Shown one piece after another: positions 1,145 to 31,085 of a DNA stretch of 32,000 nt. Location of the stretch: positions 1 to 32,000 of the forward strand of contig NC_009664.2 of assembly GCF_000017305.1 (NCBI RefSeq). Direction: 5' to 3'. The notes under the pieces were generated by a model. The model saw only the letters and a list, made by a program, of their open reading frames with translations. It was not told the origin of the DNA and made no database searches. How positions within the stretch are numbered: position 1 is the first letter of the stretch; every line of letters starts with the position of its first letter. A program made the position numbers and the translations under genes. Source of the stretch: Kineococcus radiotolerans SRS30216 = ATCC BAA-149 (lineage in GTDB: Bacteria; Actinomycetota; Actinomycetes; Actinomycetales; Kineococcaceae).

Positions 1145-1180
1145 GGCCGTGGCCGTGGCCGTGGCCGTGGCCGTGGCCGA
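1145..1180. repeat. hexamer tandem repeat (GGCCGT)x5 plus one degenerate copy
   Basis: Read directly from the sequence, 25 nt after the stop of the hydrolase gene. Confidence 0.9.
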
Positions 1181-1764
1181 CGAGCCGGGCAAGGTCGTCG
1201 GGAACACCGTCTAGGGCCGGACCGGTAGCGCCGCCCTGGCTGCGAGCGCCGCCGCGCTGCGCACCTACGTCAAGGAGCACTCCGGTCGCTACGCCGTGAT
1301 CAACAGCTCTCTCTGCTCCCGGCCGGACAACCCCTTCACCGTCGCCGCTGGCGTGCGCCGAGCCTTCTGGCCCTCGACGCGCGTATCCAGCTGCCGTGAA
1401 TGCACACGCTGTGCCACACATGGGTCACCACCCTGCGCTACGAAGAGCCCGCACCACCCTGGAGCGCCACCCCGACGACATCCTCACCGCCTACACAGCC
1501 TCCCGCGGCTGAACGGCCTCACTCACCTGCCGATGTCTGGATGCAGGCCGAGCACGACGATCATGTGCACGTCGTGCTGGGGCTCACGCCGAAAGGGCAG
1601 TCACATCGGTCTGAAGATCTGTCACATGGCGTGGTCATCATGGTGCTGAGCCTCGGTCGCTCGGGTCTGCTGCCCGGGGCACGGTGGGCGGCGACCCGGC
1701 GGCGGGTCGGCGGGTCGGCGGCGAGTAGGCGGGCCGCCGGTGCTGACCGCGACCGCGCTGGCCG

Positions 1765-2523
1765 CTAGGCAGGCCCGTGATCGACGAGCTTGCTGAGCCA
1801 CTCGCGCAGCAGGCCGGCCTCAGCGGGGCTGAACCGACCTGAGGTCAGCGGGTCGAGGCCGCCCTGGGGCGAGACGACGGCGAGCAGGGCAGCGGCGCGG
1901 GCGCAGGTGCTCGCCTCAAGGTCCGCGTCTGGGGTCGGGGCGGTGGTCAGCGCGTCGAGCACCATGTCGCGCAGCGGCCTGATCAGACCCGGGTCGCGCT
2001 GGGGTTCAGGCTGCGCGAGCAGCAGGAGGACCGCCCCCGTGGTGGAGGCCTCGATCGAGCGGGTCGCCGTCTCCACCGGCACCTTGAGTCGTCCTCGGCT
2101 GTTGGCGCGCTCGAGCATGTGTCGCAGGATGTCCTGGTTCTCCTGGGCCGCCGCCGGCCGGCGCCCTGGCCGCAGGTTGCCGTACATGAGCGTGTAGACC
2201 GCGGGGTTCGTCAGCCCGAACTCCACGTGGATGTCCCATCCCCGGCGGAGGTCCTCGACCGGGTCCTGGCTCGGTGCGAACGTCCGCTTCTCGGCCAGGT
2301 AGGTCTCGAACCCGTAGCTGGCGACGGCATCCAGCAGCTCGTCCTTGCCTCCGAAGAGGCGGTACAGCGTGGGGGTCTGCACCCCGGCGGCCGCCGCCAC
2401 GGCGCGCGTGGAGATGCCGGTGAGACCGGCCTCGGCCAGCAGCTTCGCGGCGGCGTCGAGGATGCGTTCGCGCTGGTGGTCTTGACCGCCGCCCGCAGCT
2501 GTTCGTTCGAAGTCGCTCGCCAT
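1765..2523 (-). CDS. TetR/AcrR family transcriptional regulator
   Basis: Track ORF 1765..2910 trimmed to the in-frame ATG at 2523 (MASDFERT...). The HTH RERILDAAAKLLAEAGLTGISTRAVAAAAGVQTPTLYRLFGGKDELL is a TetR signature. The upstream 129 codons show no family features. Confidence 0.85.
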   Translation of the reverse strand: MASDFERTAAGGGQDHQRERILDAAAKLLAEAGLTGISTRAVAAAAGVQTPTLYRLFGGKDELLDAVASYGFETYLAEKRTFAPSQDPVEDLRRGWDIHVEFGLTNPAVYTLMYGNLRPGRRPAAAQENQDILRHMLERANSRGRLKVPVETATRSIEASTTGAVLLLLAQPEPQRDPGLIRPLRDMVLDALTTAPTPDADLEASTCARAAALLAVVSPQGGLDPLTSGRFSPAEAGLLREWLSKLVDHGPA

Positions 2524-2600
2524 GTGCCGATGGTAACGCCAGCTCGTTGACATTGACATTGACGTCGTAACGTTCATAGTGTTGCCATCGTCAACGACAG
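2524..2600. promoter_or_regulatory. candidate promoter/operator region of the TetR gene
   Basis: Locally lower GC. Three contiguous TTGACA/TTGACA/TTGACG hexamers at 2547-2564, followed by the short palindromes GACGTC and AACGTT, and GTTG..CAAC at 2581-2595. Function is inferred only. Confidence 0.35.
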
Positions 2601-3152
2601 AGGTAAGGCCTGGCGGAAGAAGTGAGGGCATGGGCAACCAGGAGTGGCTCGAGCAGGTGCGTCCGGGCACCGGCGGTCTGGAGGTGACGCGCAGGGGCTG
2701 AGCTGCCCGGGTACGGGCAAACTCCCTGACGACACCGACGAGGTGTCCGCGGACGGCACCTTGGAGACAGTGCTGACTCAGGGCGGGACGCTCTTCAAGA
2801 CCGCGGACGCACGCGGGTCGAGAGCCACCCGCCTCGTCACCGACCTCTACAACCACGCCCCAGAACTCGACCCTGAAACCCTCACCGGGGCAGCCCTCAC
2901 CCTCGAACACCTCCCCGCCACTTCGACAGCCTCGACTGAACTCGCGTCAGCCCAACGCAGGCGTTCGGCTCTGGGGTGCCCGGCGGGCGGCTCGCTCGCC
3001 ATCGCCAACACGCCTGCGTACGAGGCGGCTTCGCGCGAGCTGTCGGCCTGACAGTCGCCCACCACGGCCGCCGCTTCGGACTCGATCAGATCGCGCTCCG
3101 CACGAGCGGGCAGGTCGACCCACCTGAGCGGTGAGCCAGACCAACACCCTCT

Positions 3153-3172
3153 CCGACGTCGCCCGACGTCGG
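3153..3172. repeat. tandem duplicated decamer CCGACGTCG(C/G)
   Basis: Two adjacent copies, each containing the palindrome CGACGTCG, about 40 nt upstream of ATG 3213. Possible operator. Confidence 0.6.
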
Positions 3173-3212
3173 CAGTCACCACACCCTCACCCCTTTTCAG
3201 GAGGACCCCTCG

Positions 3213-4088
3213 ATGTCCGTACTCCTCACCGGCGCCACCGGACACATCGGTTCAGCCGTGCTCCGATCCCTCATCGCACGCAGTCATGACGTCGTCGCGC
3301 TCGTGCGCAGCTCCGCCGGGGCAGAACTCGTTTCCGGGCAGGGCGCCAGAGCGGTGGTCGGCGACATCACCGACCAGGTTCTCCTGCGGGACCTGATGAG
3401 CCGTGTGGACGGCGTCGTGCACACCGCCTCACCCGGCGACGCCACGAGCGCGCAGGTCGACACCACCGTCGTCGACCTCGCGATCAGCACCCTGGGCGGC
3501 ACGAACATCCCCTACGTCCACACCGGCGGGGTGTGGATCTTCGGTTCCGGCAGCGACCTCGTCGAGACCGACGCACCCAACCCCTTGCCGATCACCGCCT
3601 GGCGTCTCAGCATCGAAGACCGGCTGCGCGCATCTGCGGTGCGCTCGACGATCATCGCTCCGACCGTCGTCTACGGATACGGCCGCGGGATCCCCAACGT
3701 CCTGGCCGGGAACGAGAACGGGGGCGCAGGCGGGGAGGTTCGGCTCGTCGGGGACGGCAGGCAGCACTGGGCGACCGTCCACGCCGACGACCTCGCCGAT
3801 CTGTACGTGCTGGCTCTGGAGAAGGCGGGCTCCGACGACTACTTCCTGGGGGCCTCGGGGGCCAACCCCACCGTGCGCGAACTCGGCGAAGCCGCGGCCC
3901 ACGGCCGCCCGGTCGTGGAGGAGTCCATCGACGCCACCCGCGAGCGCCTGGGGGCGATGTTCGCCGACGCCCTCCTGCTCGACCAGCAGGCCTTCGGGCG
4001 TCACGCGCGTGAGGACCTCGGCTGGACGCCCACGCACCCGACCCTCCTCGAGGAGCTCGCCTCGGGTGGCTACCAGCGCCTGTCTTAG
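3213..4088 (+). CDS. NAD(P)-binding epimerase/dehydratase-like (atypical SDR) protein
   Basis: AGGAGGA at 3199-3205, 7 nt before the ATG. N-terminal Rossmann motif LLTGATGHIGSAV. 291 aa with high GC3. Confidence 0.8.
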   Translation: MSVLLTGATGHIGSAVLRSLIARSHDVVALVRSSAGAELVSGQGARAVVGDITDQVLLRDLMSRVDGVVHTASPGDATSAQVDTTVVDLAISTLGGTNIPYVHTGGVWIFGSGSDLVETDAPNPLPITAWRLSIEDRLRASAVRSTIIAPTVVYGYGRGIPNVLAGNENGGAGGEVRLVGDGRQHWATVHADDLADLYVLALEKAGSDDYFLGASGANPTVRELGEAAAHGRPVVEESIDATRERLGAMFADALLLDQQAFGRHAREDLGWTPTHPTLLEELASGGYQRLS

Positions 4089-4543
4089 GAGAGCCCGGGT
4101 TCGCAGGTGTTCTTCCCGATCAACGGTTCGAGTGCGCTGAGCACAGCACGCAGATCCTCGACGGGCAGGTCCTCGACGGGCAGGGTGGTCAAGGGTGAGG
4201 CCGCCACCACGGCCGCGGTCATCGCGGCGTAAGCCTGCCGGCCGCGGTCGGTGAGCTGCAGCAGGCGCCGTCGCCGATCGTCCGGGTCCGTCACGCGCTG
4301 AGCCAGCTGCAGGCTCTCCAAGGAGGTGGCCAGCAGCGTCACGTTGGAGGGGTCGCACGCCAGGTGGTGCGCCACGGTACCCATCGGGACCGGGCCCTGC
4401 GTGCCCAGCAGCCAGATCAGGCCCGCCCCGCTCTCACTGACACTGAAGGCGGCCAACGCGGTGGCGGCCGCCCGGTGGTGCAGTTCGGCGAGGTGCTGCA
4501 CCACCTCGGCGACGCGCAGGACCTGCTTGGGGTTCATCCTCAT
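4085..4543 (-). CDS. MarR family transcriptional regulator
   Basis: The winged-helix segment GPVPMGTVAHHLACDPSNVTLLATSLESLQLAQRVTDPDDRRRRLLQLTDRGRQ is MarR-like. The track ORF starts at 4573, but its first 10 codons (VELEKIKDW) are AT-rich with low GC3, so I prefer ATG 4543 (or 4537). The stop overlaps the convergent stop of the 3213..4088 gene. Confidence 0.75.
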   Translation of the reverse strand: MRMNPKQVLRVAEVVQHLAELHHRAAATALAAFSVSESGAGLIWLLGTQGPVPMGTVAHHLACDPSNVTLLATSLESLQLAQRVTDPDDRRRRLLQLTDRGRQAYAAMTAAVVAASPLTTLPVEDLPVEDLRAVLSALEPLIGKNTCEPGLS

Positions 4544-4605
4544 CCAATCCTTGATTTTTTCAAGCTCTACCATATGCTTGATCCATTCAACGATAGGAAG
4601 TGTCC
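4544..4605. promoter_or_regulatory. AT-rich divergent MarR/oxidoreductase control region
   Basis: The lowest-GC stretch in the first 17 kb of the window. Small inverted repeats CTTGA-N6-TCAAG and CAAGC-N10-GCTTG. AGGAAG SD at 4595-4600. Confidence 0.4.
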
Positions 4606-5637
4606 GTGAGCTGGTCCAACGGCCGTGCCGTCATCGTCAGCCGTCGCGGTGGGCCCGAGCATCTGCGGGTGCTCGAGACACGGTTCCCCGACCCGGCACC
4701 CGGCTCGGTGCGCATGGCCGTGCAAGCCGCCGGCGTCGCCTACGGTGACGTCCTGCTGCGCGAAGGCCTGGTGCCGAAGACGTCCTACCCGGTCACCCCC
4801 GGCTACGACGCCGTCGGCGTGGTCGACGCCGTCGGCGAGGGCGTCACCAGCCCCGCGCTGGGGCAGCGGGTGCTGGCGCGCACCGAGGGCCGCGGCGGCT
4901 ACGCCACCCACGTCCAGGTGAGCGCCGACTTCACCGTTCCCGTCCCCGCGGACCTGGAGGCGGGCGCCCTGGTCGCGCTGCCGCTGAACTACCTCTCCGC
5001 CTGGCAGATGCTGACCCGCGTCGCCCTCACCCCCGCCGAGGGCACGGTGCTCGTGCACGGCGCCGCCGGCGGTGTCGGCAGCGCGCTGGTCGAGCTGGCC
5101 CGGCTGCGCGGTCTGCGCGTCATCGGCACCGCCTCCGCCGCACGCCTGCCCGCCCTGACCGAGCAAGGCGCCTCAGCGGTGGACCGCGGCGGCGACTGGG
5201 TGCGGGGGGTCCGGGCGCTGGCCCCGGGAGGTGTGGACACCGTCTTCGACGGAGTCGGCGGGTTCACCAGCCGGCGCTCCTTCGCCCTGCTGGCGCCCGG
5301 TGGCCACCTCGTGGTCTACGGCATCACCTCCGGCCTGGCGGGCGGGCGACGCAGCCCGGCCGCGCTCGCTCGCACCGCCGCCGGCACCCTGCGCCAGTCG
5401 GCGCTGGGCCTGTTCAGCAAGGGCCTGGGCATCGACGGGTACATGTCGGCGACCTACGTGCCCGCCCACCCCCGGCGCTTCCGCGAGGACCTCACCGAAC
5501 TCGTCGCCCTCCTGCAGCGTGGGGCCATCTCCCCGACAATCGCCGCGCGGCTGCCGCTGGAGCGGGCCCAGGAGGCCCACCGCCAGCTCGCGGGCGGAGT
5601 CAGCGGCAAGATCGTCCTGGAGGTGGCGCCAGCGTGA
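4606..5637 (+). CDS. MDR-superfamily quinone oxidoreductase / zinc-type alcohol dehydrogenase-like protein
   Basis: PGYDAVGVVDAVGEGV and the nucleotide-binding VHGAAGGVGSALV. GTG 4606 sits 5 nt after AGGAAG. The track start 4600 overlaps the SD. Confidence 0.85.
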   Translation: MSWSNGRAVIVSRRGGPEHLRVLETRFPDPAPGSVRMAVQAAGVAYGDVLLREGLVPKTSYPVTPGYDAVGVVDAVGEGVTSPALGQRVLARTEGRGGYATHVQVSADFTVPVPADLEAGALVALPLNYLSAWQMLTRVALTPAEGTVLVHGAAGGVGSALVELARLRGLRVIGTASAARLPALTEQGASAVDRGGDWVRGVRALAPGGVDTVFDGVGGFTSRRSFALLAPGGHLVVYGITSGLAGGRRSPAALARTAAGTLRQSALGLFSKGLGIDGYMSATYVPAHPRRFREDLTELVALLQRGAISPTIAARLPLERAQEAHRQLAGGVSGKIVLEVAPA

Positions 5638-5718
5638 TTCCACTCGCTGCTGAAAGCACCGACATGCTCACCTCCTGCGAGCACCCTTCGAGCATCGGAA
5701 GAGGCAGGCGATGACGCC

Positions 5719-6318
5719 CTACCGCCGCTCGCTCCCGTGCGGTGCTGCCGCCGGGATGCTGGTGGCGCGGCGGACCATCTCGGAGAGGAAGCGCTTGCGG
5801 TCGGCGTGAACGCGCGCGCTGTCAGCACTCGTGGTGGTGCGCACGACACTGATCGCCGACCAGGTCATGGCCATCGCCACGACCAGTGAGAGCACCTGCG
5901 AGGGGTCCAGTGCCGGGTCGATGCTGCCGTCCGCCTGCGCCTGCCGCAGGGCCTGCAGCTTCGCCTCGTGGCCCACCGCGTCGGGGATCAGGTCGCCCGT
6001 AGGGACACGCTCCAGGCGCGCCCATCCCGCCAGGCGCACGAACTCGGGGTGCTTGCGGTGCGCGTCGTACAACCGGGCCGCGTAGCCGGGCAGGTCCTGC
6101 GCCGTGAAAGGGACGGCGTCCATCACCGCGGCGGTGTGCTCAGCGAAGACGGCGTCGAACAGGCCGTCCTTGTTGCCGAAGTAGTCGTACATCTGCGCCT
6201 TGCTGGTCGCAGCAGCCGCCGCGATCCGGTCGACCCTGGCTCCCGCGATGCCGTGCTGGGCGAACTCGGCCGCCGCCGCTTGCAGTACTCGCCGCCTGGT
6301 CGCCTGTCCGTCTCGCAC
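5719..6318 (-). CDS. TetR/AcrR family transcriptional regulator
   Basis: N-terminal HTH RRRVLQAAAAEFAQHGIAGARVDRIAAAAATSKAQMYDYFGNKDGLFDAV. GTG start. Divergent from the SDR gene. Confidence 0.85.
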   Translation of the reverse strand: MRDGQATRRRVLQAAAAEFAQHGIAGARVDRIAAAAATSKAQMYDYFGNKDGLFDAVFAEHTAAVMDAVPFTAQDLPGYAARLYDAHRKHPEFVRLAGWARLERVPTGDLIPDAVGHEAKLQALRQAQADGSIDPALDPSQVLSLVVAMAMTWSAISVVRTTTSADSARVHADRKRFLSEMVRRATSIPAAAPHGSERR

Positions 6319-6405
6319 ACCCCATCCTACCGACCCGTTGGTTGACTCACGATCGACGAACTCGTACCGTTGAGCCTACCAACTAGTCAGTAGCAAGGAG
6401 ACCTC

Positions 6406-7188
6406 ATGAGCACCACCGTCCTGATCACCGGCGCCGGCAGCGGATTCGGCCGCGGCACGGCGCTGGCCCTGGCCCTGGCCCGACTGGGCCACCGCGTCAT
6501 CGCCGGCGTGCAGATCTGGCCCCAGGCGTGGGAGCTGCGCGCCGCGGCCGAACGCGCGGGCGTCGAGCTGGAAGTCATCAAGCTGGACCTGTACAGCGAG
6601 ATCGACCGAGCACACGCCCTCACCTACGACATCGACGTGCTCTTCAACAACGCCGGCATCGCCAACAGCGGGACCCTCACCGACATCCCGATGTCGCTGG
6701 TGCGCGAAAACTTCGAGACCAACGTGTTCGCTCCACTGGAGCTGACCAAGGGCTTCGTGCGCAAGATGATCGCGCGCGGCAGCGGGAAGATCGTCTTCAA
6801 CTCCTCCGACGCTGGCCTGCAGACGCCGCCCTTCGGTGGCGCGTACAGCGCCACCAAGTACGCGATCGAGGCCATCGCTGCCACGCTGCGTGAAGAGCTC
6901 AAGCCCCAGGGCATCACGGTGGCGACGGTGCAGCCCGGCTTCTACCTCACGGGATTCAACGACACCGCACTGGAGGCTTCGACCTACTGGTACGACCCGG
7001 CGACCGCACTACTGCCAGGTTGGAAGCCGCCCTACACCCTGCAGGGCCAGGAGGACCCCCAGCCGATGATCGACGTCATCGTCAAGGTCATCACCGGTGA
7101 GAACAAGCGCTACCGCAACGTCTTCCCGCCCTCCATGGAGCAGGAGACCCGCCAGGCCCAGGCCGCCGAGTGGGACCTGATGCTCTAA
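6406..7188 (+). CDS. short-chain dehydrogenase/reductase (SDR)
   Basis: AAGGAG lies 6 nt upstream of the ATG. TGAGSGFGRG (TGxxxGxG), NNAG, and the catalytic YSATK (YxxxK). Confidence 0.9.
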   Translation: MSTTVLITGAGSGFGRGTALALALARLGHRVIAGVQIWPQAWELRAAAERAGVELEVIKLDLYSEIDRAHALTYDIDVLFNNAGIANSGTLTDIPMSLVRENFETNVFAPLELTKGFVRKMIARGSGKIVFNSSDAGLQTPPFGGAYSATKYAIEAIAATLREELKPQGITVATVQPGFYLTGFNDTALEASTYWYDPATALLPGWKPPYTLQGQEDPQPMIDVIVKVITGENKRYRNVFPPSMEQETRQAQAAEWDLML

Positions 7189-7643
7189 TGACGGGCGATG
7201 CTTCGATGACCTGCCAGACTCACCGGCCCGCGATCGGTGACGACGTCCGCAGAGCGCTCGAGATCGACCGCTCGTCCTCCGCGTGGGAGCGCACGGTCGA
7301 CATCACCACGACCGGTCGACGCTCTGGACGCGCACGGCGCATCGAGACCTGGTTCTACCGGGCGGACGGCAGGTTGTACCTCAGCGGCCTCCCGGGACGC
7401 CGGGACTGGGCGGCCAACCTCCAGGCCCACCCCGCCTTCACTCTGCACGTGAAGCACGGGGCCCGGGCCGACCTCTGCGCGACGGCTCGTCCGGTGAGCG
7501 ACGCGCAGGAACGTCGGCGCATCCTCAGCGCGTTCGTCGAGGACATGAACCAGCCGCACAACCCCGCCAGGATCGCCCAACCGACGCGACTGGAGGACTG
7601 GATGGCCGACAGTCCGCTCTTCGAGGTGCTGCTGGACGACTAG
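7188..7643 (+). CDS. F420H2-dependent quinone reductase-like / deazaflavin-dependent nitroreductase family protein
   Basis: TTTGRRSGRARRIETWFY...DWAANLQAHPAF resembles the TTxGRKSG...NL.A.P pattern of the family. ATG 7188 overlaps the SDR stop (TAATG), implying co-translation. GTG 7170 and ATG 7206 are alternative starts. Confidence 0.65.
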   Translation: MTGDASMTCQTHRPAIGDDVRRALEIDRSSSAWERTVDITTTGRRSGRARRIETWFYRADGRLYLSGLPGRRDWAANLQAHPAFTLHVKHGARADLCATARPVSDAQERRRILSAFVEDMNQPHNPARIAQPTRLEDWMADSPLFEVLLDD

Positions 7644-7707
7644 CGCGGTCATGCGGGCGGGACGCACCGTCCGCGCTGAACCCCGCCACTTGCGCGTCGT
7701 CTGGCGA

Positions 7708-7740
7708 CGCCCACACCGCGATGAACGCTCGGTGTGGGCG
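7708..7740 (+). terminator. stem-loop, candidate intrinsic terminator
   Basis: CGCCCACACCG-N11-CGGTGTGGGCG, a perfect 11-bp stem 65 nt after stop 7643. No U-tract follows. Confidence 0.4.
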
Positions 7741-7915
7741 CCGTCGACTCAACGTCATGATCGGCCCGCTTCCTTCGGGTCTGGACTGCGGGCGGCACCC
7801 TCATGACCCTCCGCAGCTCGCCGGTAGACGTCCTCCTGTGAGCGGCCAGCACGATCACACGGGGCGTACGGATGCGGCCTTCAAGCTCACGACGACACGG
7901 GTGTCCATCCGCACA

Positions 7916-7987
7916 CCGACCAGGACCACCACCAGCCCTCCGACCAGGACCACCACAAGCCCTCCGACCACGCCGACGACCACGCTG
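7916..7987. repeat. 24-bp tandem repeat, 2 good copies plus 1 diverged
   Basis: CCGACCAGGACCACCACCAGCCCT, then CCGACCAGGACCACCACAAGCCCT, then a diverged third unit. Confidence 0.85.
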
Positions 7988-8182
7988 ACGGCAGCGGGCT
8001 CTCCTGGTCCCAGGCGGTGGGCCCGGCGTGCTCAGCGATGCAGCCGAGAGAGCGCGACTTCGAAGGTGGGCCGATCTGGCCCAGGCTGAGCGCGCCAGGA
8101 CCTGCGAGCTTTAGTGCGTCACCAAGACCGCGGACCGGATCCGCGGCGCTCTTCAACAACTCCCACGAAAGCAGGATCAGCG

Positions 8183-9115
8183 ATGAAGGCAGTGCGGTTC
8201 CACGAAGTCGGCGGCCCCGAAGTCCTCCAGCACGAAGACATCGACCTCCCCACCCCCGGACCCGGTCAGGTCCGGGTGCGGGTGGCCGCCTCAGCGTTCA
8301 ACGCCGCCGATAACGGCATGCGCGCCGGCTTCCTGCCCATCCCCGTCGTGCTGCCGCACATCCCCGGCTACGACGTCTCCGGCACCGTCGACGCCCTCGG
8401 CGACGACGTCGAAGACCTGACCGTCGGCGACGCCGTCATCGGCTTCCTGCCCATGGAACGCGACGGCGGCGCCGCCCAGTACGTGATCGCTCCAGCGCAG
8501 GCGCTGGTCACCGCCCCCACCACCATCCCCCTGCCCGACGCAGCAGCCCTGCCCTCGGTGGCCCTGACCGCCTGGCAAGCCCTCTTCGACGACGGCGAGC
8601 TCACCGCCGGGCAGCGGATCCTCATCAACGGCGCCGGGGGTGTGGTCGGCAAGTACGCCACCGCCCTGGCCAAGCGCGCCGGGATCCACGTGATCGCCAC
8701 CGCCAGTCCCCGCAGCGCCGACGCCGTCCGCGCCGCCGGCGCCGATGAGATCATCGACCACACCACCACCGACGTGCTGAGTGCTGTCGGGGAGCAGGTC
8801 GACGTCCTGCTGAACCTCGCCCCCATCGACCCCGAGCAGTTCAGCGCTCTGGTCGCAGCGGTCCGCGACGGCGGCAAGGTCGTCAGCACCACCGCCTTCA
8901 TGGCCACCCCCAGCGACGAGACCCGCGGCGTCACCGCCTCCACCGTGTTCGTCCTGCCGAACCGCGAGCGCCTGGCCGAACTGGTCTCCCTCGTCGACGA
9001 CGGCGCCTTGCACGTCGAGGTCACCCGCCGCATCCCGCTGGCCGACCTGCCCGCCCTGCACGCCGAAGCCGCCACCGGCCGCATCCCGGGCAAGGTCGTC
9101 ATCCTGCCCGAGTGA
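8183..9115 (+). CDS. MDR-superfamily NADPH:quinone oxidoreductase-like protein
   Basis: Track ORF trimmed to ATG 8183 (MKAVRFHEVGGPEVL...). PGYDVSGTVDALG and INGAGGVVGKYA. Paralog of 11962..12957. Confidence 0.85.
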   Translation: MKAVRFHEVGGPEVLQHEDIDLPTPGPGQVRVRVAASAFNAADNGMRAGFLPIPVVLPHIPGYDVSGTVDALGDDVEDLTVGDAVIGFLPMERDGGAAQYVIAPAQALVTAPTTIPLPDAAALPSVALTAWQALFDDGELTAGQRILINGAGGVVGKYATALAKRAGIHVIATASPRSADAVRAAGADEIIDHTTTDVLSAVGEQVDVLLNLAPIDPEQFSALVAAVRDGGKVVSTTAFMATPSDETRGVTASTVFVLPNRERLAELVSLVDDGALHVEVTRRIPLADLPALHAEAATGRIPGKVVILPE

Positions 9116-9205
9116 AGCCATCACGAGCCCGGCGTGGAACCCCACCAGAGACGCACCCACAGAACACTGGGCCCGAACAGCGACTCAGCATTGTCGGCGG
9201 GGTCA

Positions 9206-9242
9206 CAGGGACCCAGGGACCCAGGGACCCAGGGACCCAGGG
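9206..9242. repeat. octamer tandem repeat (CAGGGACC)x4.6
   Basis: Read directly from the sequence, 90 nt after stop 9115. Confidence 0.9.
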
Positions 9243-9417
9243 TTGACCTTGCCCGACGTCGTCGACTCCTTCGCGCAGCCGCAGCCGCGGCGCAGCGACG
9301 ACGAGGCGAGCCGCGCCCGTCGGAGAGTGCGGCAGCAGATGAACGTGGGTGAGTTCCGGTGGGGGGTTCGTCGCGGCCGTCCGCGACTGAGCCCGGCGCT
9401 CACCGCAACTGAACCGG

Positions 9418-9437
9418 CCCAGCCCAGCCCAGCCCAG
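9418..9437. repeat. pentamer tandem repeat (CCCAG)x4
   Basis: Read directly from the sequence, 40 nt upstream of ATG 9477. Confidence 0.9.
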
Positions 9438-9476
9438 CCTCATACGGTGCCGGCAGCGACGAGCGAGGAGACCAGC

Positions 9477-9911
9477 ATGACCGATCCGAAGGACTTCAAT
9501 GAGCGCACCATCGCCGAGTTCCGTGCGAACGGTGGCCAGGTGGGTGGCCCCTTCGCCGGGGCACCGATGGTCCTGCTGCACCACATCGGCCGCAAGAGCG
9601 GCACGGAGTTCATCACCCCGATGATGTACCTGCCCGCCGACGGCGGCGAGGACGCCGTCCACGTCTTCGCTTCCAACGGCGGCGCACCAGGAAACCCGAG
9701 CTGGTACTACAACCTCACCGCCGCAGGCAACGCCCGCCTGGAGCGGGGCACGGAGACCTTCTCGGTCTCCGTGCGGGAGCTGATCGGCGGTGAGCGGGAT
9801 GTGATGTACGCCGAGCAGGCCCGCCGCTTTCCCGGTTTCGCGGGATACGAGGAGCAGACGCGCGGTGTCCGCACCATTCCGGTGCTGGAACTGAGGCGCA
9901 CGACACCCTGA
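9477..9911 (+). CDS. deazaflavin (F420)-dependent nitroreductase family oxidoreductase
   Basis: GAGGAG lies 6 nt before ATG 9477. FNERTIAEFRANGGQVGGPFAGAPMVLLHHIGRKSG...NPSWYYNL...IPVLEL is the classic pattern of this actinobacterial family. Confidence 0.85.
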   Translation: MTDPKDFNERTIAEFRANGGQVGGPFAGAPMVLLHHIGRKSGTEFITPMMYLPADGGEDAVHVFASNGGAPGNPSWYYNLTAAGNARLERGTETFSVSVRELIGGERDVMYAEQARRFPGFAGYEEQTRGVRTIPVLELRRTTP

Positions 9912-9930
9912 GGAGGAGGCGTCCTGGGCG

Positions 9931-9980
9931 CTGCAGGGCGCCGCCGGGGGCTGCCGGGGGCTGCCGGGGGCTGCAGGGCT
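9931..9980. repeat. 10-bp tandem repeat x5 (CTGCCGGGGG and variants)
   Basis: Takes up most of the 68-bp gap between convergent stops 9911 and 9980. Confidence 0.9.
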
Positions 9981-10615
9981 CAGCGGGTGGCGCGCTCGGC
10001 GATCTGCGCCCGCAGGCCGGCCACCACCGTCTCGAGGCCGAAGTCCCAAGACATCGAGGGATCCTCGATGCCGCGCAAGGTGTGGAACTGCGGGAAGTCC
10101 GTGGCCGGGAGCGCCTCGATGTCCGTCTCCGGTGACGGGCCCTGCGCTTCCTGGCTGCGCTCGAGCCCGGCGGTGAGCGCGGTGTGGACGGCGATCTTCA
10201 CCGCCCCGTAGGCGTCCTGCGCCTCCAGACCCGCCTCGCGGAAGGCGGCCAGGGCGACCTCGAAGGACGCGGCGGCGCGCGGGCCCTGCACGGGCCGGCG
10301 CATCAGGATCGCGAAGGCACCGGGGTGTCGCAGGGCCAGCCCACCCATCGCGGTGTGGAAGCGGCGTACCCACGCCTCCCAGCCCAGCGGCTCCAAGGGC
10401 AGGTCCGCCTCCTCGAACAAGACCTCCACGATCCCGTCGCTCACCGCCTCACGGGTGTTCACGTGGTTGTACAGCGAGGTCACGTGCACACCGAGGGCGG
10501 CGGCGATCCGCCGCATGGTGACCGCTTCCAAGCCCTCGTGGTCGGCCATGGCCACCGCCGCCGCGAGGATCCGTCCTCGCGTCAGTGGTGTCACCGGGTG
10601 ATCGTAGAGGCTCAC
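9980..10615 (-). CDS. TetR family transcriptional regulator
   Basis: HTH TRGRILAAAVAMADHEGLEAVTMRRIAAALGVHVTSLYNHVNTREAV. GTG start; an alternative GTG lies at 10594. Confidence 0.85.
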   Translation of the reverse strand: MSLYDHPVTPLTRGRILAAAVAMADHEGLEAVTMRRIAAALGVHVTSLYNHVNTREAVSDGIVEVLFEEADLPLEPLGWEAWVRRFHTAMGGLALRHPGAFAILMRRPVQGPRAAASFEVALAAFREAGLEAQDAYGAVKIAVHTALTAGLERSQEAQGPSPETDIEALPATDFPQFHTLRGIEDPSMSWDFGLETVVAGLRAQIAERATR

Positions 10616-12957: not shown

Positions 12958-12967
12958 CACCCACCAT

Positions 12968-22034: not shown

Positions 22035-22048
22035 TGCGCCGCCGCCGG

Positions 22049-22084
22049 CCTCAACGACTGCCTGAACAAGTGCCTGAACACCTG
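22049..22084. repeat. 12-bp tandem repeat x3 (CCTGAACAAGTG-like)
   Basis: CCTCAACGACTG, CCTGAACAAGTG, CCTGAACACCTG, immediately upstream of the GGDEF-EAL start. Confidence 0.8.
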
Positions 22085-22530
22085 CCCGAGCCGCCGCGTC
22101 GCGCGAGGTGGCTGCCCTGAGGGGGCATACAGCGGTGACGACTGTTCACCAAACTGGCTGCAGGAGCGCAAAGGTTGAGATTTCATCGGTCCACTGCCCT
22201 CGCTCGCACGGAGGCCGGTGTTAGACCCTGGGGTACAGAATACGCCGCTCGTGATCACTTGCTCGCTACGGTCGTGTCGGATCGGAGGCAACCGTTGGAA
22301 AGTCGACAAAACCGGCGGTCCTGAACTTGCGCGACGCAGCGGGCTGGAACCCGGCAGCGTTTCGCCAGCTGAAGCCCATTCCGTCGTGCCCGGGCCACGC
22401 GCCCCGGCCCGGTCGCGATGGGGTTACGTCAGCTGCGGGTCTTGTCCTCAGCACTACTTGGAATGTACTGCCGCGGGCCTCAGCACCCAGGACCCGTCTG
22501 ATCGACACCGGTCGAGGAAGAGGCGATGTT

Positions 22531-22911
22531 TCAGGGTGGCGGTGCCAGCAGCGCCATCTCGCACCACACCTGCACAACATGGGGCTCTCGCCTCCACCCC
22601 CACTGCTGGCTCAACGCGGAAAGCAGCAGCTCGGACTCCGCACCGACCTCGAAAGGGCCGTCCCCGGCGAGATCGACGACGACGGTCAGCCCATCCAGGT
22701 CTTCTCGGACCGACACCGCTTTCGCCCAATGCTGCGGAGCGCCCACGGCGAAAAGCTCCCCAGCGGCTTGCACCAACTCCTCGGTGCGGTCCTCGCCGAC
22801 CCCGGCCTGCTCAGCGTAGACGGACAGGAAGCGGCGTGCCTGCGCCAACTCCTGCGCTCCGCCTGCCAGGTCAAGGCGGATCCGATCCCCGGCATACGTG
22901 TGGGAATTCAT
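22531..22911 (-). CDS. RsbW/SpoIIAB-like (HATPase_c_2-type) anti-sigma/kinase homolog with degenerate ATP-binding motifs
   Basis: Trimmed to ATG 22911 (MNSHTYAGDRIRLDL...), with GGAGGAGG 8 nt upstream. The ATG overlaps the STAS stop (ATGA). The layout (L.L......L...R.F....AEQAG...D....L..A..EL, ...VVVDLAGDGPF, ...LLSALSQQWGW......VWCEM) resembles short RsbW-type proteins, but ELFAVGAPQH sits where the N-box Asn is expected. Confidence 0.55.
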   Translation of the reverse strand: MNSHTYAGDRIRLDLAGGAQELAQARRFLSVYAEQAGVGEDRTEELVQAAGELFAVGAPQHWAKAVSVREDLDGLTVVVDLAGDGPFEVGAESELLLSALSQQWGWRREPHVVQVWCEMALLAPPP

Positions 22912-23348
22912 GCGCCCCCCTCCTCCGCCCACGCCCGCGAGACGCGGAAGTCGAGAACCGCGGGGAGGGCGAAAAGCTCCACCAGAGCCATCAGGTGCGG
23001 TTGAAGGCCGCACACCTGCAAGGAGTTGCCAACGCCTTCGGCGCGTTGCGACAAGGCCACCAGCAGGCCCAAGACCGCGCAGTCCAGGAACGTCACTGCC
23101 GACAGATCCAGGACGACCCGTTCAGCGATGTCGACGACCGGCTCAACCTGTTCGCGAATCCACGCTAAATCGCCCATGTCCAGCTCACCGCACAACGCCA
23201 CCGTGCACGGCTGGGCGGGGCGAGGACTCTGATCAGGGGCAGGAGGACGCGGCTGAGCGGCCGGAGAACGGTGAAGCGCAGAAGCATGATCAGTGGAACA
23301 TCGGGGCTGTTGGCTACGGGAAGCGGTCAGGAGCTGGGTCACGGCCAC
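22908..23348 (-). CDS. STAS-domain protein (anti-sigma-factor antagonist family)
   Basis: CTVALCGELDMGDLAWIREQVEPVVDIAERVVLDLSAVTFLDCAVLGLLVAL...LQVCGLQPHLMALVELFALPAVL matches the SpoIIAA/RsbV pattern. The only in-frame starts upstream of the fold are GTG 23348 and 23342, giving a roughly 50-aa Pro/Gln/Ser-rich extension. No clear SD. Confidence 0.75.
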   Translation of the reverse strand: MAVTQLLTASRSQQPRCSTDHASALHRSPAAQPRPPAPDQSPRPAQPCTVALCGELDMGDLAWIREQVEPVVDIAERVVLDLSAVTFLDCAVLGLLVALSQRAEGVGNSLQVCGLQPHLMALVELFALPAVLDFRVSRAWAEEGGA

Positions 23349-23662
23349 CTCGCGGAAGGAGCAAAGGCCGGGCCTGACTTTGGACCCACCCGAAGGCTAA
23401 GCCCCCTCCTCGGGGGCCGCAAGACGCCTGCCAGGACCCTGTCGCCCTCCAGCCGGGGCAATCTTCACCTTCGGCAATGCCCACCCGCCCCTTGTGCCCC
23501 CCTTGCGGGATGGGCCAAGGTCCATTCCGCACCCGGCGCTTGAGCATTACGTCTGCGGGCGCAGCTGATGAGTCCCGCCTCCGCCGTTGCAGCCCCAGGC
23601 CCAGGTGCTCTTGCTGGCCCGGGATGTTGTGCGATGCGGGCGCCTGGGCTCGCAGGGCTAGG

Positions 23663-24136: not shown

Positions 24137-26035
24137 TCAGCGCCCGGCGCGGCCTCCAGTGCTCCCCGCCGGGTCCAGGACGATCCGCTGAACGGGCGCG
24201 GCGAGGACCTGCTGCCAGCGCGGGAGCACCGGATCGCGGTGGAAGCGCAACCGCCCCGCCGGTCGCGACCCGCGCCGGCCACCTGCGTGCCAGGCATCCA
24301 GCGCGGCGGCGCTGGCGCGCAGAGCCGCGACGGCGCGGTGGGGGTCGAGGAGGTCGAGGTCCCCCCAGTCGTCCCCCCGGTCGCCTCTGCGGTCGCCTTC
24401 CCAGCCGCTCCCGCGCTCATCCTGCTCGCCCTGCTCACTCTCGAAGCCGCTCCTGCCCAAGTGCTCGCGCATCAGCTGCAGGCGCAGATCTCGAGCGAAG
24501 CGGCGGGCACCGTCGCCCAGCCCGGCCGGGTCAGCAGGCTCGCGCTGATCGTGGGCCTCGTCCAAGACGGCAACCGACAGTTCGGAGTCATGGCTCCAGG
24601 ACCGACGGTTGAGGTTGTCGCTGCGCACGCACGCCCACACGTCGTCGACGATGGTGACCTTGGAGTGGACGTAGACCGCCTCGCCCTGCTCGTTCTCCAC
24701 GTCGAAGACGTGCACACGGTCCCCGCCCGCGGCGCGCAGGACCTCCAACGCCCGCACCTGCCCCAGCAGCAGCGCAGGCGCCGCCAGGCCCCCGCGCTTG
24801 GGGTGACGCGGCACCAGGACGACCAACTGCAACCCGGATGTAGCGCGCAGGGCATCGGCGAAGACGCCGGCCACCTGCCGCGACCACAGGAACTGCTCCT
24901 CCACGTAGACCAGACGCCGGGCCCGGCGCAGCACCTTGACGTGAGCGGCGACGATGCTGGCCTCCCCCTGGGGGGCGAAGGGGTAGCGCGGCCAACGGCG
25001 CGGGTAGGTCCGCAGCAACTGCACCACGCACGAGCCGGGTGTGAGCGCATCGGGTGCGGGGCCCAGCGCGGGACCCCCCGGCGTGGGCTCCCCCGGCGCG
25101 GGCTCCCCCGGCGCGGGCTCCCCCGAGGTGGGCTCCTCTTCAGCTGGGTGAGCAGCCGCGGCCGGCATCGGCTGCGGTGGGGGAAGCGGTACCGGCCGCC
25201 GCACGAGACGGCGCAGCAGGTCCGAGCCGACCTGCCACGGCAGCAGCGACAGCGGCGCACGGTCCTCCCACCGTTCGCGGAAGACGGTCTCGACGTGGTC
25301 CACCGCGGGCCCGCGGACCGCGGTGTGGATGTCGTGCCACGAGGGATGGCGCCCGTACTTGCTCCCGAAGGACATCCGCTGCCGGTCCCCGTGGTGAGCG
25401 GTCCCGTCACGGCGACTGTGGGCGAGGTCGAGGCTGCCGACGAAGGCGACATCGTCCTGGGGACGGTGCAGGTGCCGGATGACGAGGAACTTCTGGTGGT
25501 GACTGCCCAGGGTCCGCACCCGCTGGTCCAGCAGGACCTCCGCGCCCCCCTTCACCTTCTGAGCCAGGTGGCGGTTTCGCTCAGGCACCAGACGCTGCCA
25601 ATCCCACGGTGAGCGCCACACCAGGCCCTTGACCACCGCACCGCGGCGGGCGGCGGCGGTGAGAGCCTCAGCGATCGTGGGCCCGTCGTCGGTGAGCAGC
25701 TCATCGGGATCGCCCTGCCAGTCGGCGAAGAGCACCAGATCACCCTCACCGCTCCCCGCCAGCGCTGCGGCCAGCGCCGAGAAGTAGGCCACCCCGTCGA
25801 CGAGGGGCTGCACCCGGTTCCCCCGGCTCCACGCGGGCAGGCGGGTGGCGCCGTTGCCGCGTTCGGCACCGCTCAGCAGCCAGACGGTCGCAGACCGGTC
25901 ACCGGCACCATCCCCGGCGCCATCCCTGGTGGCCGTCGCGCCCTTGGTAGCAGCGGTGGTGGCGCTAGCAGCGGCGGTGGCGCTAGCAGCGGTGGTGGCG
26001 GCGGTACTGAAGGTGGCGTCCTGGTGGTGGCTCAT
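24137..26035 (-). CDS. phospholipase D-like protein with two HKD motifs
   Basis: Track ORF 24137..26632 trimmed to ATG 26035 (MSHHQDATFS...), which overlaps the stop of the upstream kinase gene (ATGA). First motif GSHHQKFLVIRH...VAFVGSLDL. Second motif YVHSKVTIVDDVWACVRSDNLNRRS. The N-terminal GNRVQPLVDGVAYFSAL...ADWQGDPDELL resembles long PLD enzymes. Confidence 0.85.
   Translation of the reverse strand: MSHHQDATFSTAATTAASATAAASATTAATKGATATRDGAGDGAGDRSATVWLLSGAERGNGATRLPAWSRGNRVQPLVDGVAYFSALAAALAGSGEGDLVLFADWQGDPDELLTDDGPTIAEALTAAARRGAVVKGLVWRSPWDWQRLVPERNRHLAQKVKGGAEVLLDQRVRTLGSHHQKFLVIRHLHRPQDDVAFVGSLDLAHSRRDGTAHHGDRQRMSFGSKYGRHPSWHDIHTAVRGPAVDHVETVFRERWEDRAPLSLLPWQVGSDLLRRLVRRPVPLPPPQPMPAAAAHPAEEEPTSGEPAPGEPAPGEPTPGGPALGPAPDALTPGSCVVQLLRTYPRRWPRYPFAPQGEASIVAAHVKVLRRARRLVYVEEQFLWSRQVAGVFADALRATSGLQLVVLVPRHPKRGGLAAPALLLGQVRALEVLRAAGGDRVHVFDVENEQGEAVYVHSKVTIVDDVWACVRSDNLNRRSWSHDSELSVAVLDEAHDQREPADPAGLGDGARRFARDLRLQLMREHLGRSGFESEQGEQDERGSGWEGDRRGDRGDDWGDLDLLDPHRAVAALRASAAALDAWHAGGRRGSRPAGRLRFHRDPVLPRWQQVLAAPVQRIVLDPAGSTGGRAGR
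25066..25140 (-). repeat. in-frame 15-bp tandem repeat x5 in the PLD gene
   Basis: GCGCGGGCTCCCCCG-type units encoding SGEPA/PGEPA/PGEPT/PGGPA. Confidence 0.9.
25950..26003 (-). repeat. in-frame 18-bp tandem repeat x3 at the PLD N-terminus
   Basis: GCAGCGGTGGTGGCGCTA-type units encoding AATTAAS/ATAAAS/ATTAAT. Confidence 0.9.
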
Positions 26036-28802: not shown

Positions 28803-28860
28803 CCACCTGGTCCGCCGGCGTCCGCGGTCCCCCGCTTCCGGCCTCCTCGGGTACAGCCGG

Positions 28861-28886
28861 TGTGTCAAGACCCGGGTCTTGACACA
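28861..28886. repeat. perfect 26-bp inverted repeat TGTGTCAAGACCC|GGGTCTTGACACA
   Basis: Read directly from the sequence, 59 nt after the PP2C stop. It contains TTGACA on both strands. It could act as a hairpin terminator or as a dimeric-regulator operator. Confidence 0.9.
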
Positions 28887-28926
28887 TCCCAGACGTGCAC
28901 ATCCCAGACGTGCACATCCCGTACGG
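28883..28926. repeat. 15-bp tandem repeat x2.9 (CACATCCCAGACGTG)
   Basis: Begins inside the right arm of the palindrome and ends 22 nt before the GNAT ATG. Confidence 0.9.
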
Positions 28927-28947
28927 CTAGCCCTACAACGTTGGATC

Positions 28948-29396
28948 ATGGCCCGACTGCGTGTGCGCACAGAAGCAGACGTAGCGACGATCGTCAGCTG
29001 GGTCCCCGACGCTGCCGCCCTCCACCGCTTCGCCGGTCCCTGGCTCACCTGGCCCTCGACCATCGAGCAGCTCAACGACGTCACCGCCCGACCAGGAGCC
29101 ACCGCCTGGGTAGTCGACGGCCCCACGGCGTGGCCGGCCACATCCAACTCACCCCCACCGACGGCGCCATGCGCGTGGGACGTGCCCTGGTCGACCCGGC
29201 GCAGCGAGGTCGAGGAACTGGCCGCCAGCTCGTCGCCCTGGCCCTGGCGCTGGCCCGTTCTCAGGGAGCGGTCCGAGTCGACCTGGGCGTGCTCGCGGAC
29301 AACTGGTCCGCGCGCCGCATCTACGACGCCCTCGGATTCGTCCCCATCGCCGATCCGGATCCCTCCGGCGTGGTCATGATGACGTGCCCCTCCTGA
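28948..29396 (+). pseudogene. GNAT-family N-acetyltransferase, frame-disrupted
   Basis: The N-terminal half (MARLRVRTEADVATIVSWVPDAAALHRF...ATAWVVDGP) reads in the ATG 28948 frame. The C-terminal half (HGVAGHIQL...VDPAQRGRGTGRQLVALALALAR...ARRIYDALGF) reads one frame back. The switch is at the C4 run 29121-29124. Confidence 0.7.
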
Positions 29397-29751: not shown

Positions 29752-30258
29752 TCACGAGTCCAGGGACAGCTCCTGCAGCGGGTCGCCCCCATCGATGAAG
29801 ACGCGACCACCAGGAGCCAAGGCGGCCAGAAGCCGCTGCATCGCCTGGTGCCCGGCTGCGGGATGGCGACCGTCCAGGGCCCCCACCCGCACCGCGAACA
29901 CGATGTCGAACCCCGGCTCCCCCGGCTCCAGCACGAACGATTCCACCGCGACGCACCGCACCCCCATCCGCCCCGAAGCGATCTCGGCCTTCGACCCCGC
30001 CCGCGCCTGCGCAATCGCGGCCGCGGAGCGGTCGATCGCCAACACGAAGCCCGTCTCCAACCTCTGAGCCACCGCACGCGACGCAGCACCCGGTCCGCAC
30101 CCCACCTCCAGCACGCGGGACGCAGGAGTCAACGGCAGCGCGTCCACGACCGCCGCCAACCGGGAGGACAACCTCGCCGTCACACCAAAAAGCGTAGGCA
30201 CGACTGCAGTCGACGTCACCGGTGCAGGCCCACCCACGAGCGACGACTTCACGGTCAT
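29752..30258 (-). CDS. class I SAM-dependent methyltransferase
   Basis: Motif I VLEVGCGPGAAS, followed by AIDRS.. and DIVFAV. Start ATG 30258 is preferred (MTVKSS...). The track start 30324 has an identical sequence context. Confidence 0.8.
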   Translation of the reverse strand: MTVKSSLVGGPAPVTSTAVVPTLFGVTARLSSRLAAVVDALPLTPASRVLEVGCGPGAASRAVAQRLETGFVLAIDRSAAAIAQARAGSKAEIASGRMGVRCVAVESFVLEPGEPGFDIVFAVRVGALDGRHPAAGHQAMQRLLAALAPGGRVFIDGGDPLQELSLDS

Positions 30259-30520
30259 CCCGCGATGAGGGACTGTTACCCGCCCCAAAGCCGCCCCAAG
30301 GGGGGTGCGCGACCGCGCGGTCATCCCGCGGTGTGCGCGCTATCGCCGGCGGCAGACGACCTCACTCATCTGCCGATGACCATGCGATCACCAAAGACCG
30401 ATTCGTCGTGGGAGGAGGCAGCTCCGCGGCGTCCTCGACGCCGCGGGGCCGGCTCATCGCACCTTCTTGCGAACCGGCCGTACCCGCACCGCAGCTTCCA
30501 TCACCTTTGCCGCGATGGAT

Positions 30521-30570
30521 GAACGGGCGACGACGAACGGGCGACGACGAACGGGCGACGACGAACGGGC
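30521..30570. repeat. 14-bp tandem repeat x3.6 (GAACGGGCGACGAC)
   Basis: Read directly from the sequence, about 30 nt beyond the DUF1330 stop. Confidence 0.9.
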
Positions 30571-30601
30571 ATTGGCGAGCGCGGCCCCCGCGTGATGGAG
30601 G

Positions 30602-30934
30602 TCAGGCCGCCGGGGCGGTCCCGGGCAGGAAGATCAGCCGGCGACGCATGGCGGTAGCCGCGATCTCGCGAGCCGGGGCGTACTCCGCGGAGTCGTACCA
30701 GGCCTGCAGGGTTTCCATGTCCGGCCACTGGACGACCGCGGCCACGATCCCCGCCTCGCCCTCGGCGGCCGTGGGTGAGGCGCCGAGGACGACGAAGCGG
30801 CCGCCGAACTTCTCCACCGTGGCCGGGGTCAGCTCGGCGTAGCGCTGGGCGCCGGCGGGGTCGAGGACCTGGAGGACCTCGGTGATGCTGTATGCGGGGG
30901 TGCGGGTGGTGTTGGGGGCGGTGGTCTCGGACAC
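30602..30934 (-). CDS. DUF1330-domain protein
   Basis: Trimmed to GTG 30934, with AAGGAG 7 nt upstream. PAYSITEVLQVLDPAGAQRYAELTPATVEKFGGRFVVLG...WPDMETLQAWYDSAEY fits DUF1330. Confidence 0.75.
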   Translation of the reverse strand: MSETTAPNTTRTPAYSITEVLQVLDPAGAQRYAELTPATVEKFGGRFVVLGASPTAAEGEAGIVAAVVQWPDMETLQAWYDSAEYAPAREIAATAMRRRLIFLPGTAPAA

Positions 30935-31040
30935 GGGAGTTCTCCTTCGGGTGGCTTGCTCGGGTGTGGTGGTCGGGCGTGGTGGTTCAGGTGGGTTCTT
31001 CAGGTCCTGCGTCGGGTTCAAGGCCCGGGTGGGTGTTGCT

Positions 31041-31085
31041 GGTCCCGCTGTGTCCTGCTGGGTTCTGCTGGGTTCTGCTGGGTGT
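31041..31085. repeat. 10-bp tandem repeat about x4.5 (GGTTCTGCTG)
   Basis: Two perfect copies and 2-3 degenerate copies, ending at the SDR stop codon. Confidence 0.85.

Follow-up and report, generated by a model that had tools for sequence, protein, structure and literature searches.

Private, strain-variable tandem repeats crowd one end of the linear Kineococcus radiotolerans SRS30216 chromosome

The stretch of DNA analysed here, referred to as the window, comprises the terminal 32 kb of the radiation-resistant bacterium Kineococcus radiotolerans SRS30216 and forms the outermost end of its chromosome, which is linear and 4,761,183 bp long (PMC2587704). Its genes are of ordinary accessory types and include TetR, MarR and MmyB regulators, zinc-ADH and SDR oxidoreductases, F420H2-dependent reductases as well as GGDEF-EAL, phospholipase D and SpoIIE phosphatase genes. 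According to a gene map that combines codon-usage scores with Pfam matches and with gene calls taken from independent contigs, coding DNA makes up 22.8 kb of the window and non-coding DNA ~9.2 kb (29%). Part of the latter may still be coding, and ten open reading frames (ORFs) lying in its large stretches gave no Pfam match except for one weak HATPase_c_2 hit. The spacers between the genes, and some of the genes themselves, are interspersed with short tandem repeats, here called arrays, which form the subject of this report. The arrays differ between strains by whole repeat units, and their enrichment is specific to the chromosome end and to one lineage.

The window opens with telomere-like nested palindromes (Table 1), the contigs of more than 20 independent assemblies begin at its position 3-5, and in K. 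aurantiacus the orthologous genes are found on a 4.85-Mb contig, within 13.5 kb of its start; the window is therefore a chromosome end. A second K. radiotolerans strain (GCA_014191015.1, hereafter the sister strain), which aligns to window positions 3-18624 at ~96% identity in BLAST, offers a view of the same tip. Its contig (L091 20600-20856, minus strand) extends 107 bp beyond the window start and carries three extra palindromes with the same loop GCTGGCGC, so that the deposited SRS30216 chromosome end may lack ~100 bp of telomere. In addition, the tip of the sister-strain chromosome recurs internally (L091, reverse complement of 18183-18412) opposite window position ~18624, in direct orientation and with 83% identity over 234 bp, exactly where synteny with the window stops; this second copy could be a relic telomere left by a chromosome-arm replacement. 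A plasmid origin of the window was considered as well, but the only matches in a plasmid collection, to Streptomyces and Nonomuraea records, were short and weak.

A first-pass annotation made from the window sequence had listed 17 non-coding arrays with their unit lengths. Tandem Repeats Finder (TRF) retrieved all 17, within ~10 bases or less of the listed positions and with the listed unit lengths. Their combined length of 797 bp corresponds to 8.7% of the non-coding DNA. For all density comparisons we used a fixed filter (TRF score of at least 50, period of at least 4, at least 2.5 copies and at least 80% matches), which yields 20 arrays in the window, 15 of them non-coding (1.6 per kb) and five coding (0.22 per kb). 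About ten two-copy duplications are additionally detected by TRF. The copies abut without spacers, confirming that the arrays are not CRISPR, and the units are mutually unrelated, as had been noticed before: each is confined to its own array and pairwise overlaps amount to trivial short words, the sole non-trivial likeness being the 8-mer GGACCCAG that the 8-bp unit of array 9206 has in common with the reverse complement of the 10-bp unit of array 31037, possibly by chance.

High-GC, low-complexity DNA can inflate repeat calls and the deposited genome stems from an older Sanger assembly, which raises the question of whether the arrays might be an assembly artefact or merely typical of high-GC composition. 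We give this reading practically no credence, as it is already refuted by several lines of evidence. In 200 dinucleotide-preserving shuffles the mean was 0.06 arrays in the non-coding DNA and 0.04 in the whole window, and none held more than one. The window density of 0.625 arrays per kb is ~12 times the 0.054 per kb (maximum 0.24) found in 37 unrelated loci with a GC content of at least 0.65, a control of 672 kb drawn from 80 loci of distant GGDEF-EAL paralogues in unrelated phyla. Independent Logan assemblies of other sequencing runs are identical to the window, without gaps, over 3-14039 and 30541-32000; these Illumina assemblies of many independent runs match the arrays base for base and cross eight of them (1145, 7916, 9206, 9417, 9926, 11774, 12958 and 31037). 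Their contigs stop inside 14010 and 30521, the two perfect arrays whose length is sufficient to disrupt k-mer assembly. Finally, the same loci carry arrays in the sister strain and in Kineococcus sp. T13. All features are collected in Table 1, and in the text arrays are named by their start positions.

Table 1. Arrays and related features of the window, with their setting and their state in relatives. Copy differences are those of the window relative to the sister strain unless stated otherwise.
Position	Strand	Feature	Setting	State in relatives
1-51		Telomere-like nested palindromes; hairpin 1-38, loop GCTGGCGC	Mark the chromosome end	
1145-1179		GGCCGT, 6 bp, x5.8, perfect	24 nt past stop of hydrolase gene (260-1120)	Sister strain ~1.8 copies; +24 bp, exactly +4 units
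1700-1721		CGGCGGGT, x2.8	Weaker candidate of the first-pass annotation	+1 unit
7916-7990		24-bp unit x2.3, directly followed by 12-bp unit x2.2	Called by TRF	Sister strain one 24-mer fewer and three 12-mers more
9206-9242		CAGGGACC, 8 bp, x4.6, perfect	Called by TRF	Sister strain only CAGGGACCCAGGG (1.6 copies); +24 bp, exactly +3 units
9417-9439		GCCCA, 5 bp, x4.6	37 nt upstream of F420H2-dependent reductase start	+1 unit; about +3 units relative to T13
9926-9979		10-bp unit, x5.4	Occupies convergent gap between stops 9911 and 9980	+2 units
10734-10766	-	12-bp unit, x2.8, coding	C-terminal tail of MmyB-like regulator	Copy number varies in relatives; sister strain reads the tail in another frame
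11774-11856		23-bp unit, x3.6	Divergent spacer between MmyB-like regulator and ADH gene	4.6 copies in sister strain (-1), 5.6 in T13
11905-11935		Proto-repeat CACGACGAG, x2		Full array in sister strain: +54 bp there, 6 more units, 9-bp unit x7.9
12543-12599	+	12-bp unit, x4.8, coding	Inside ADH gene (11962-12957)	T13 2 units fewer (323 vs 331 aa); sister strain and ENA relative 1 more (335 aa)
12958-13025	+	17-bp C/A-rich unit, nearly G-free, x4.0	Occupies ADH-NmrA spacer to the ribosome-binding site	Copy number identical in sister strain
12958-13035		C-rich ADH-NmrA array	Window copy	L085 3883-3920; L088 6227-6264; L086 9951-9987; L090 9913-9985
14010-14054		CCTGAGTCAGCCG, 13 bp, x3.5, perfect	Called by TRF	T13 one unit plus CCTGAG (1.46 copies), window +26 bp, exactly +2 units; same length in sister strain
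14075-14145		Older, degenerate array common to relatives		T13: 20-bp unit x3.7, 75% matches; region 50 bp longer in sister strain
15583-15627		CCGGCACCATCGG, 13 bp, x3.5	Convergent gap	Sister strain one more unit; array missing from T13
17613-17646		GTGGGCGCA, 9 bp, x3.8	97 nt past TetR stop codon	Sister strain one more unit
17721-18056	+	IS4/5-family transposase pseudogene	Encloses array 17861	
17861-17896	+	GCGGACC, 7 bp, x5.1	Disrupts frame of transposase pseudogene	Sister strain ~5 more units
18054-18131	+	24-bp unit, x3.2	Start of MmyB ligand-binding-domain fragment	Sister strain ~1.25 copies
19282-19311		CGCGGATGG, 9 bp, x3.3, perfect	26 nt past DUF4440 stop; tail of SpoIIE gene fragment	
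20891-20927	-	12-bp unit, x3.1, coding	GAF-GGDEF-EAL gene	
22048-22086		12-bp unit, x3.2, 81% matches	13 nt upstream of GGDEF-EAL start codon	
25062-25136	-	15-bp unit, x5.0, coding	Phospholipase D-like gene	
25948-26000	-	18-bp unit, x2.9, coding	Near N-terminus of phospholipase D-like gene	
28883-28920		CACATCCCAGACGTG, 15 bp, x2.5, perfect	Upstream of GNAT gene or in its first 20 codons, depending on the start	Metagenome relative: different 16-bp unit x3.3 at this position
30521-30570		GAACGGGCGACGAC, 14 bp, x3.6, perfect	31 nt past DUF1330 stop codon	Unalignable in 90%-identical metagenome relative
31037-31083		10-bp unit, x4.8	Occupies gap past SDR stop codon at 31085	Fewer copies in metagenome relative

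The comparison with the sister strain covers 17 loci, namely 13 arrays of the first-pass annotation, the weaker candidate 1700, the coding arrays 10734 and 12543, and the proto-repeat 11905. At 15 of these 17 loci the length differs, and at ten the difference amounts to an exact number of units (+4, +3, +2, +1, +1, -1, -1, -1, -1 and -6), while three further loci fall within 0.15 of a whole unit, two show compound changes and two are unchanged. By our reading of the indel list, ~23 of the 26 inter-strain indels of at least 4 bp lie in arrays or proto-repeats. Kineococcus sp. T13 and relatives from ENA and JGI likewise differ by whole units between alignable flanks. At several array loci the relatives hold only proto-repeats of 1.5-1.8 copies, and the same spacers can carry other, private arrays in them, which attests to turnover. 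Every array closes with a partial last copy of 1-14 bp, mostly 3-8 bp, the footprint that would be expected if a short direct repeat had primed the first duplication. The earlier suggestion of a slippage or duplication process is thus supported. The supposed confinement to 3-5 copies, read as a ceiling, did not survive: relatives reach 5.6, 7.2 and 7.9 copies, the window itself has its two-copy duplications, and the apparent band is a small-sample view whose lower bound is set by detectability.

Nor is the process visible genome-wide, as had been proposed. A core region reached via atpD (L101/L102; 21.4 kb from an SRS30216 culture and the same region in the sister strain, ~0.88 Mb into a 2.36-Mb contig) contains no array in either strain, with 6.9 expected at window rates (P ~0.001); its non-coding fraction is 7.3%, and its 19.8 kb of coding DNA are free of arrays too. 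The atp contig of T13 likewise has no array with at least 2.5 copies. Over this core region the two K. radiotolerans strains are 99.46% identical and differ by only two 1-bp indels, so that a substitution divergence of 0.54% there stands against 2.7% in coding and 4.2% in non-coding DNA of the terminal region, a 5-8-fold contrast. The next 9.9 kb beyond the window (32-42 kb), ~33% non-coding by the listed gene calls, hold one array against 6.75 expected (P ~0.009). Expressed per non-coding kb, the density is 0.9-4.3 arrays in the window, ~0.3 in the next 10 kb and 0 in the core. The orthologous terminal region has 0.62 arrays per kb in the sister strain and 0.47 in T13, whereas K. aurantiacus, K. 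gypseus and Motilibacter reach only 0.10-0.17 per kb.

Arrays inside genes follow a different rule from those outside. The five arrays found in intact genes are built of 12-, 12-, 12-, 15- and 18-bp units, compared with seven multiples of three among the 17 listed arrays, which show no such preference; that every coding unit is a multiple of three points to a selection filter inside genes. The ADH-gene array accordingly shifts in frame among relatives, giving proteins of 323, 331 and 335 aa. At 10718-10850 (minus strand), SRS30216 reads the final ~32 codons of the MmyB-like regulator in a frame other than that used by the sister strain and an ENA relative, owing to repeat indels of 11 bp and 16 bp.

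The description of the listed arrays as non-coding holds for most of them and is doubtful in four cases. Two of these arrays, 18054 and 19282, are part of gene fragments and a third, 28883, falls within the longest GNAT ORF, all three with units that are multiples of three; the fourth, 17861, sits within the transposase pseudogene. For the GNAT gene (28860-29396) the start is ambiguous, with public calls of 178 aa and 88 aa, and under the longer call array 28883 encodes residues 8-20. The segment 17721-19341 as a whole is pseudogene debris, consisting of remnants of an IS4/5 (DUF4096) transposase, of an MmyB ligand-binding domain (18057-18407) and of a SpoIIE phosphatase, here the C-terminal half (18724-19041), and each of these remnants carries or adjoins a tandem array. 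With array 17861 reduced to the WTADGTW codons presumed to be original, the DUF4096 match extends across the array site with E = 1e-19. In this dead transposase gene a function of the array is not plausible.

Taken together, the arrays are probably ordinary variable-number tandem repeats (VNTRs; micro- and minisatellites) that arise by slipped-strand mispairing or microhomology-primed tandem duplication and pile up at a weakly constrained chromosome end. Judged from the sequences compared here, such an array would start from a chance pair of short direct repeats of 3-14 bp, mostly 3-8 bp, spaced 5-24 bp apart, which constitutes the proto-repeat; a single slip during replication or repair would then double the unit, and later slips would add or remove whole units. 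The resulting length changes would be tolerated because the terminal region is fast-evolving and weakly constrained, being ~29% non-coding and furnished with pseudogene debris and accessory genes, whereas within genes only in-frame units would survive. The arrays would accordingly represent by-products of slippage without a selected function.

Several points weigh against this account. The mechanism is one that we infer from its products. The 10 kb next to the window are non-coding to a similar extent and yet hold a single array, and at the orthologous chromosome end of K. aurantiacus the density is just 0.15 arrays per kb; an array-poor flank and an array-poor end in a related species point to an extra lineage- or location-specific factor. 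Relaxed selection accounts for much of the accumulation but may be insufficient on its own. The placement of the arrays relative to genes, considered below, is not what pure neutrality predicts either, and the spacer between the ADH and NmrA genes hints at selection for composition at this site. The sampling is thin, moreover, resting on one chromosome end, one flank and one core region, the last taken from SRS30216, its sister strain and T13.

The extra factor might be a higher mutation input, with the chromosome end acting as a slippage hot zone rather than only as a place of weaker selection, whether through replication termination and end-patching or through Ku-less break repair near the telomere. 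The array-poor neighbouring 10 kb and the array-poor K. aurantiacus end make a raised local duplication rate possible, and the gradient in arrays per non-coding kb from window to flank to core, the 0.22 in-frame coding arrays per kb in the window against none in the coding DNA of the core, the 5-8-fold higher substitution divergence and the telomere-like palindromes at the window start are all in line with it. However, relaxed selection or recombination with diverged alleles would also produce more divergence and more arrays, the K. aurantiacus end is much poorer in arrays, and a single end, flank and core region were sampled; we regard the hot zone as a tentative and somewhat doubtful alternative to ordinary slippage under weak constraint. 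The repair repertoire counts in its favour, too: K. radiotolerans lacks MutSLH, RecJ, ExoI and Ku (PMC2587704). M. tuberculosis lacks most of the same genes, while possessing Ku, and the gene set alone therefore cannot be the cause. To our knowledge, no such array density exists in M. tuberculosis. Near the atp operon (L101/L102 13229-13924) we came across a gene for NucS/EndoMS, the actinobacterial alternative to MutSL. A stronger version of the hot zone, in which the window would be a true bacterial 'subtelomere' with an intrinsically high rate of microhomology-primed duplication driven by replication or break repair close to the telomere, hypervariable and rich in minisatellites like the zones flanking eukaryotic telomeres, and of recent origin in the lineage of K. 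radiotolerans and K. vitellinus (T13), is conceivable, if on present evidence rather unlikely.

Functional readings have to account first of all for the position of the arrays. As had been observed before, many lie close behind stop codons: 11 of the 17 touch the first 100 nt past a stop codon, a zone making up 22% of the non-coding DNA (binomial p ~2e-4), an enrichment that depends on the gene map used. Such placement would suit 3'-end elements, that is terminators without a U tract or mRNA-protecting hairpins of a REP-like kind that are built by the tandem form, and two arrays indeed occupy the gap right after a stop, 9926 in a convergent and 31037 in a co-directional gap. Strong folds are predicted for 9926 (-42 kcal/mol), 11774 (-49), 1145 (-27) and 17861 (-24). 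Against shuffled sequences, however, the z-scores of the 17 arrays are mild, mostly between -0.2 and -2, and that of the 9926 hairpin is only -1.4; the strongest z-score belongs to an array within a pseudogene, and five arrays (7916, 9417, 12958, 30521 and 31037) are essentially unstructured. None of the 17 is followed by a U tract, which argues against intrinsic terminators. As copy number moreover varies freely between strains, with some arrays down to 1.6 copies, and the core genome does without such arrays, 3'-end elements are an unlikely explanation. Still less probable is a role as contingency loci or spacing devices, in which copy number would tune genes through promoter spacing, leader structure or reading frame. 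Only four arrays are close to a start codon or promoter: 9417 (37 nt), 22048 (13 nt) and 12958 (10 nt) near start codons and 11774 in a divergent promoter region. These, the frame change that repeat indels cause in the MmyB tail between strains, and the C-rich leader before the NmrA gene, which is kept in kind across genera, speak for it. Conversely, the majority of the arrays lie past stop codons instead of in 5' coding or -35/-10 positions, the multiple-of-three units of intact genes make on/off frameshifting impossible, the sole frame change affects the last ~32 MmyB codons, and the neighbours are ordinary TetR, ADH and SDR genes and not surface or restriction genes; pseudogenes hold arrays as well. 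A rough estimate based on strain divergence would put the changes at ~1.7-2 per array per 0.042 substitutions per site, or tens of times the per-base rate, which would fall far short of the 1e-2 to 1e-5 per generation typical of classical phase variation. Overall, position, folding and strain comparison gave no evidence of a designed function, and the options of spacing, contingency or protein-binding periodicity raised by the first-pass annotation find no support, given free strain variation, arrays in pseudogenes, the post-stop location and the multiple-of-three units in genes.

The ADH-NmrA spacer might be a local exception. In five species of two genera (SRS30216, T13, K. gypseus, K. aurantiacus and Motilibacter) it is filled up to the ribosome-binding site by a C-rich, G-poor array, although the units and their lengths differ. 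The window copy is practically unstructured (-2.5 kcal/mol), and the sequence pattern suggests a selected unstructured leader at this one site.

Among known systems, bacterial VNTRs or long simple sequence repeats come closest. Surveys describe genomes in which intergenic repeats of 5-11-bp units (LSSR5-11) abound, read there as a general expansion tendency rather than a specific role and reported mainly from large-genome non-pathogens, some Actinobacteria included (Mrazek, Guo and Shah 2007, as summarised in PMC4679880; Huang and Mrazek 2014, PMC4060949). Like LSSR5-11 and VNTRs in general, the window arrays consist of head-to-tail, spacerless copies of 5-24-bp units, are mostly intergenic with multiple-of-three units in genes, exceed expectation from composition and vary between strains by whole units with alignable flanks. 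Unlike LSSR5-11, they are concentrated in the terminal ~31 kb at 1.6 per non-coding kb, with none in the core region. With the phase-variable contingency loci of host-adapted pathogens, simple sequence repeats located in promoters or at 5' gene ends, they have in common that they are tandem repeats near genes whose copy number varies by slippage. Contingency loci are usually built from many copies of 1-7-bp units and switch surface or restriction genes by frame or promoter spacing at high rates, whereas the window arrays are few-copy, mostly post-stop, in frame inside genes and located beside ordinary metabolic or regulatory genes. Mycobacterial MIRU-VNTR and REP/BIME elements are intergenic, often located between operon genes or past stop codons, and strain-variable in copy number as well. 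MIRU units measure 40-100 bp and REP units are palindromic, and in both one sequence recurs across many loci; in the window each locus has its own unrelated unit, which sets the arrays apart from dispersed families such as REP, MIRU or MITE. By their telomere-adjacent, fast-evolving and rearranged setting with accessory genes and pseudogenes and by their variability between strains, they are reminiscent of the minisatellite-rich subtelomeres of eukaryotes and of Streptomyces chromosome arms (PMC5869714). This likeness appears to concern position only. In eukaryotic subtelomeres the arrays are longer, and meiotic recombination is largely what drives them.

The arrays themselves are thus ordinary for slippage products, and what is unusual is their concentration at the chromosome end and their restriction to one lineage. 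We found no literature report of short-tandem-repeat enrichment at the end of a linear bacterial chromosome, Streptomyces arms included, nor any paper dealing with Kineococcus tandem repeats; in the genome paper the word 'repeat' is entirely absent (PMC2587704). A terminal ~31 kb saturated with private, variable repeats next to a sampled core without any is a steep and apparently unreported pattern. Should it extend genome-wide and to the other end, it would provide a natural system for weighing slippage rate against weak selection near telomeres, high-resolution typing markers for Kineococcus strains, and a caution for short-read assembly, in which perfect arrays break contigs; an apparent series of ~30 or more resequenced cultures of this strain in the read archive could then yield a direct rate estimate. 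The SRR5887xxx runs are conceivably mutation-accumulation lines.

A few further observations concern the window outside the arrays. An ~870-bp segment (6144-7012) is absent from the sister strain, which takes away part of a TetR gene, the intergenic promoter region and most of an SDR gene (6406-7188). In the 690-bp divergent spacer between a TetR gene (1765-2523) and an epimerase gene (3213-4088), TTGACA is repeated 2.8 times at 2547-2563, amounting to tandem canonical -35 hexamers. Lastly, a 1.6-kb segment (22035-23662) combines a weak coding signal, no Pfam match and a lower GC content (0.67); it is free of arrays except for 22048 at its left edge and may contain unrecognised or foreign genes.

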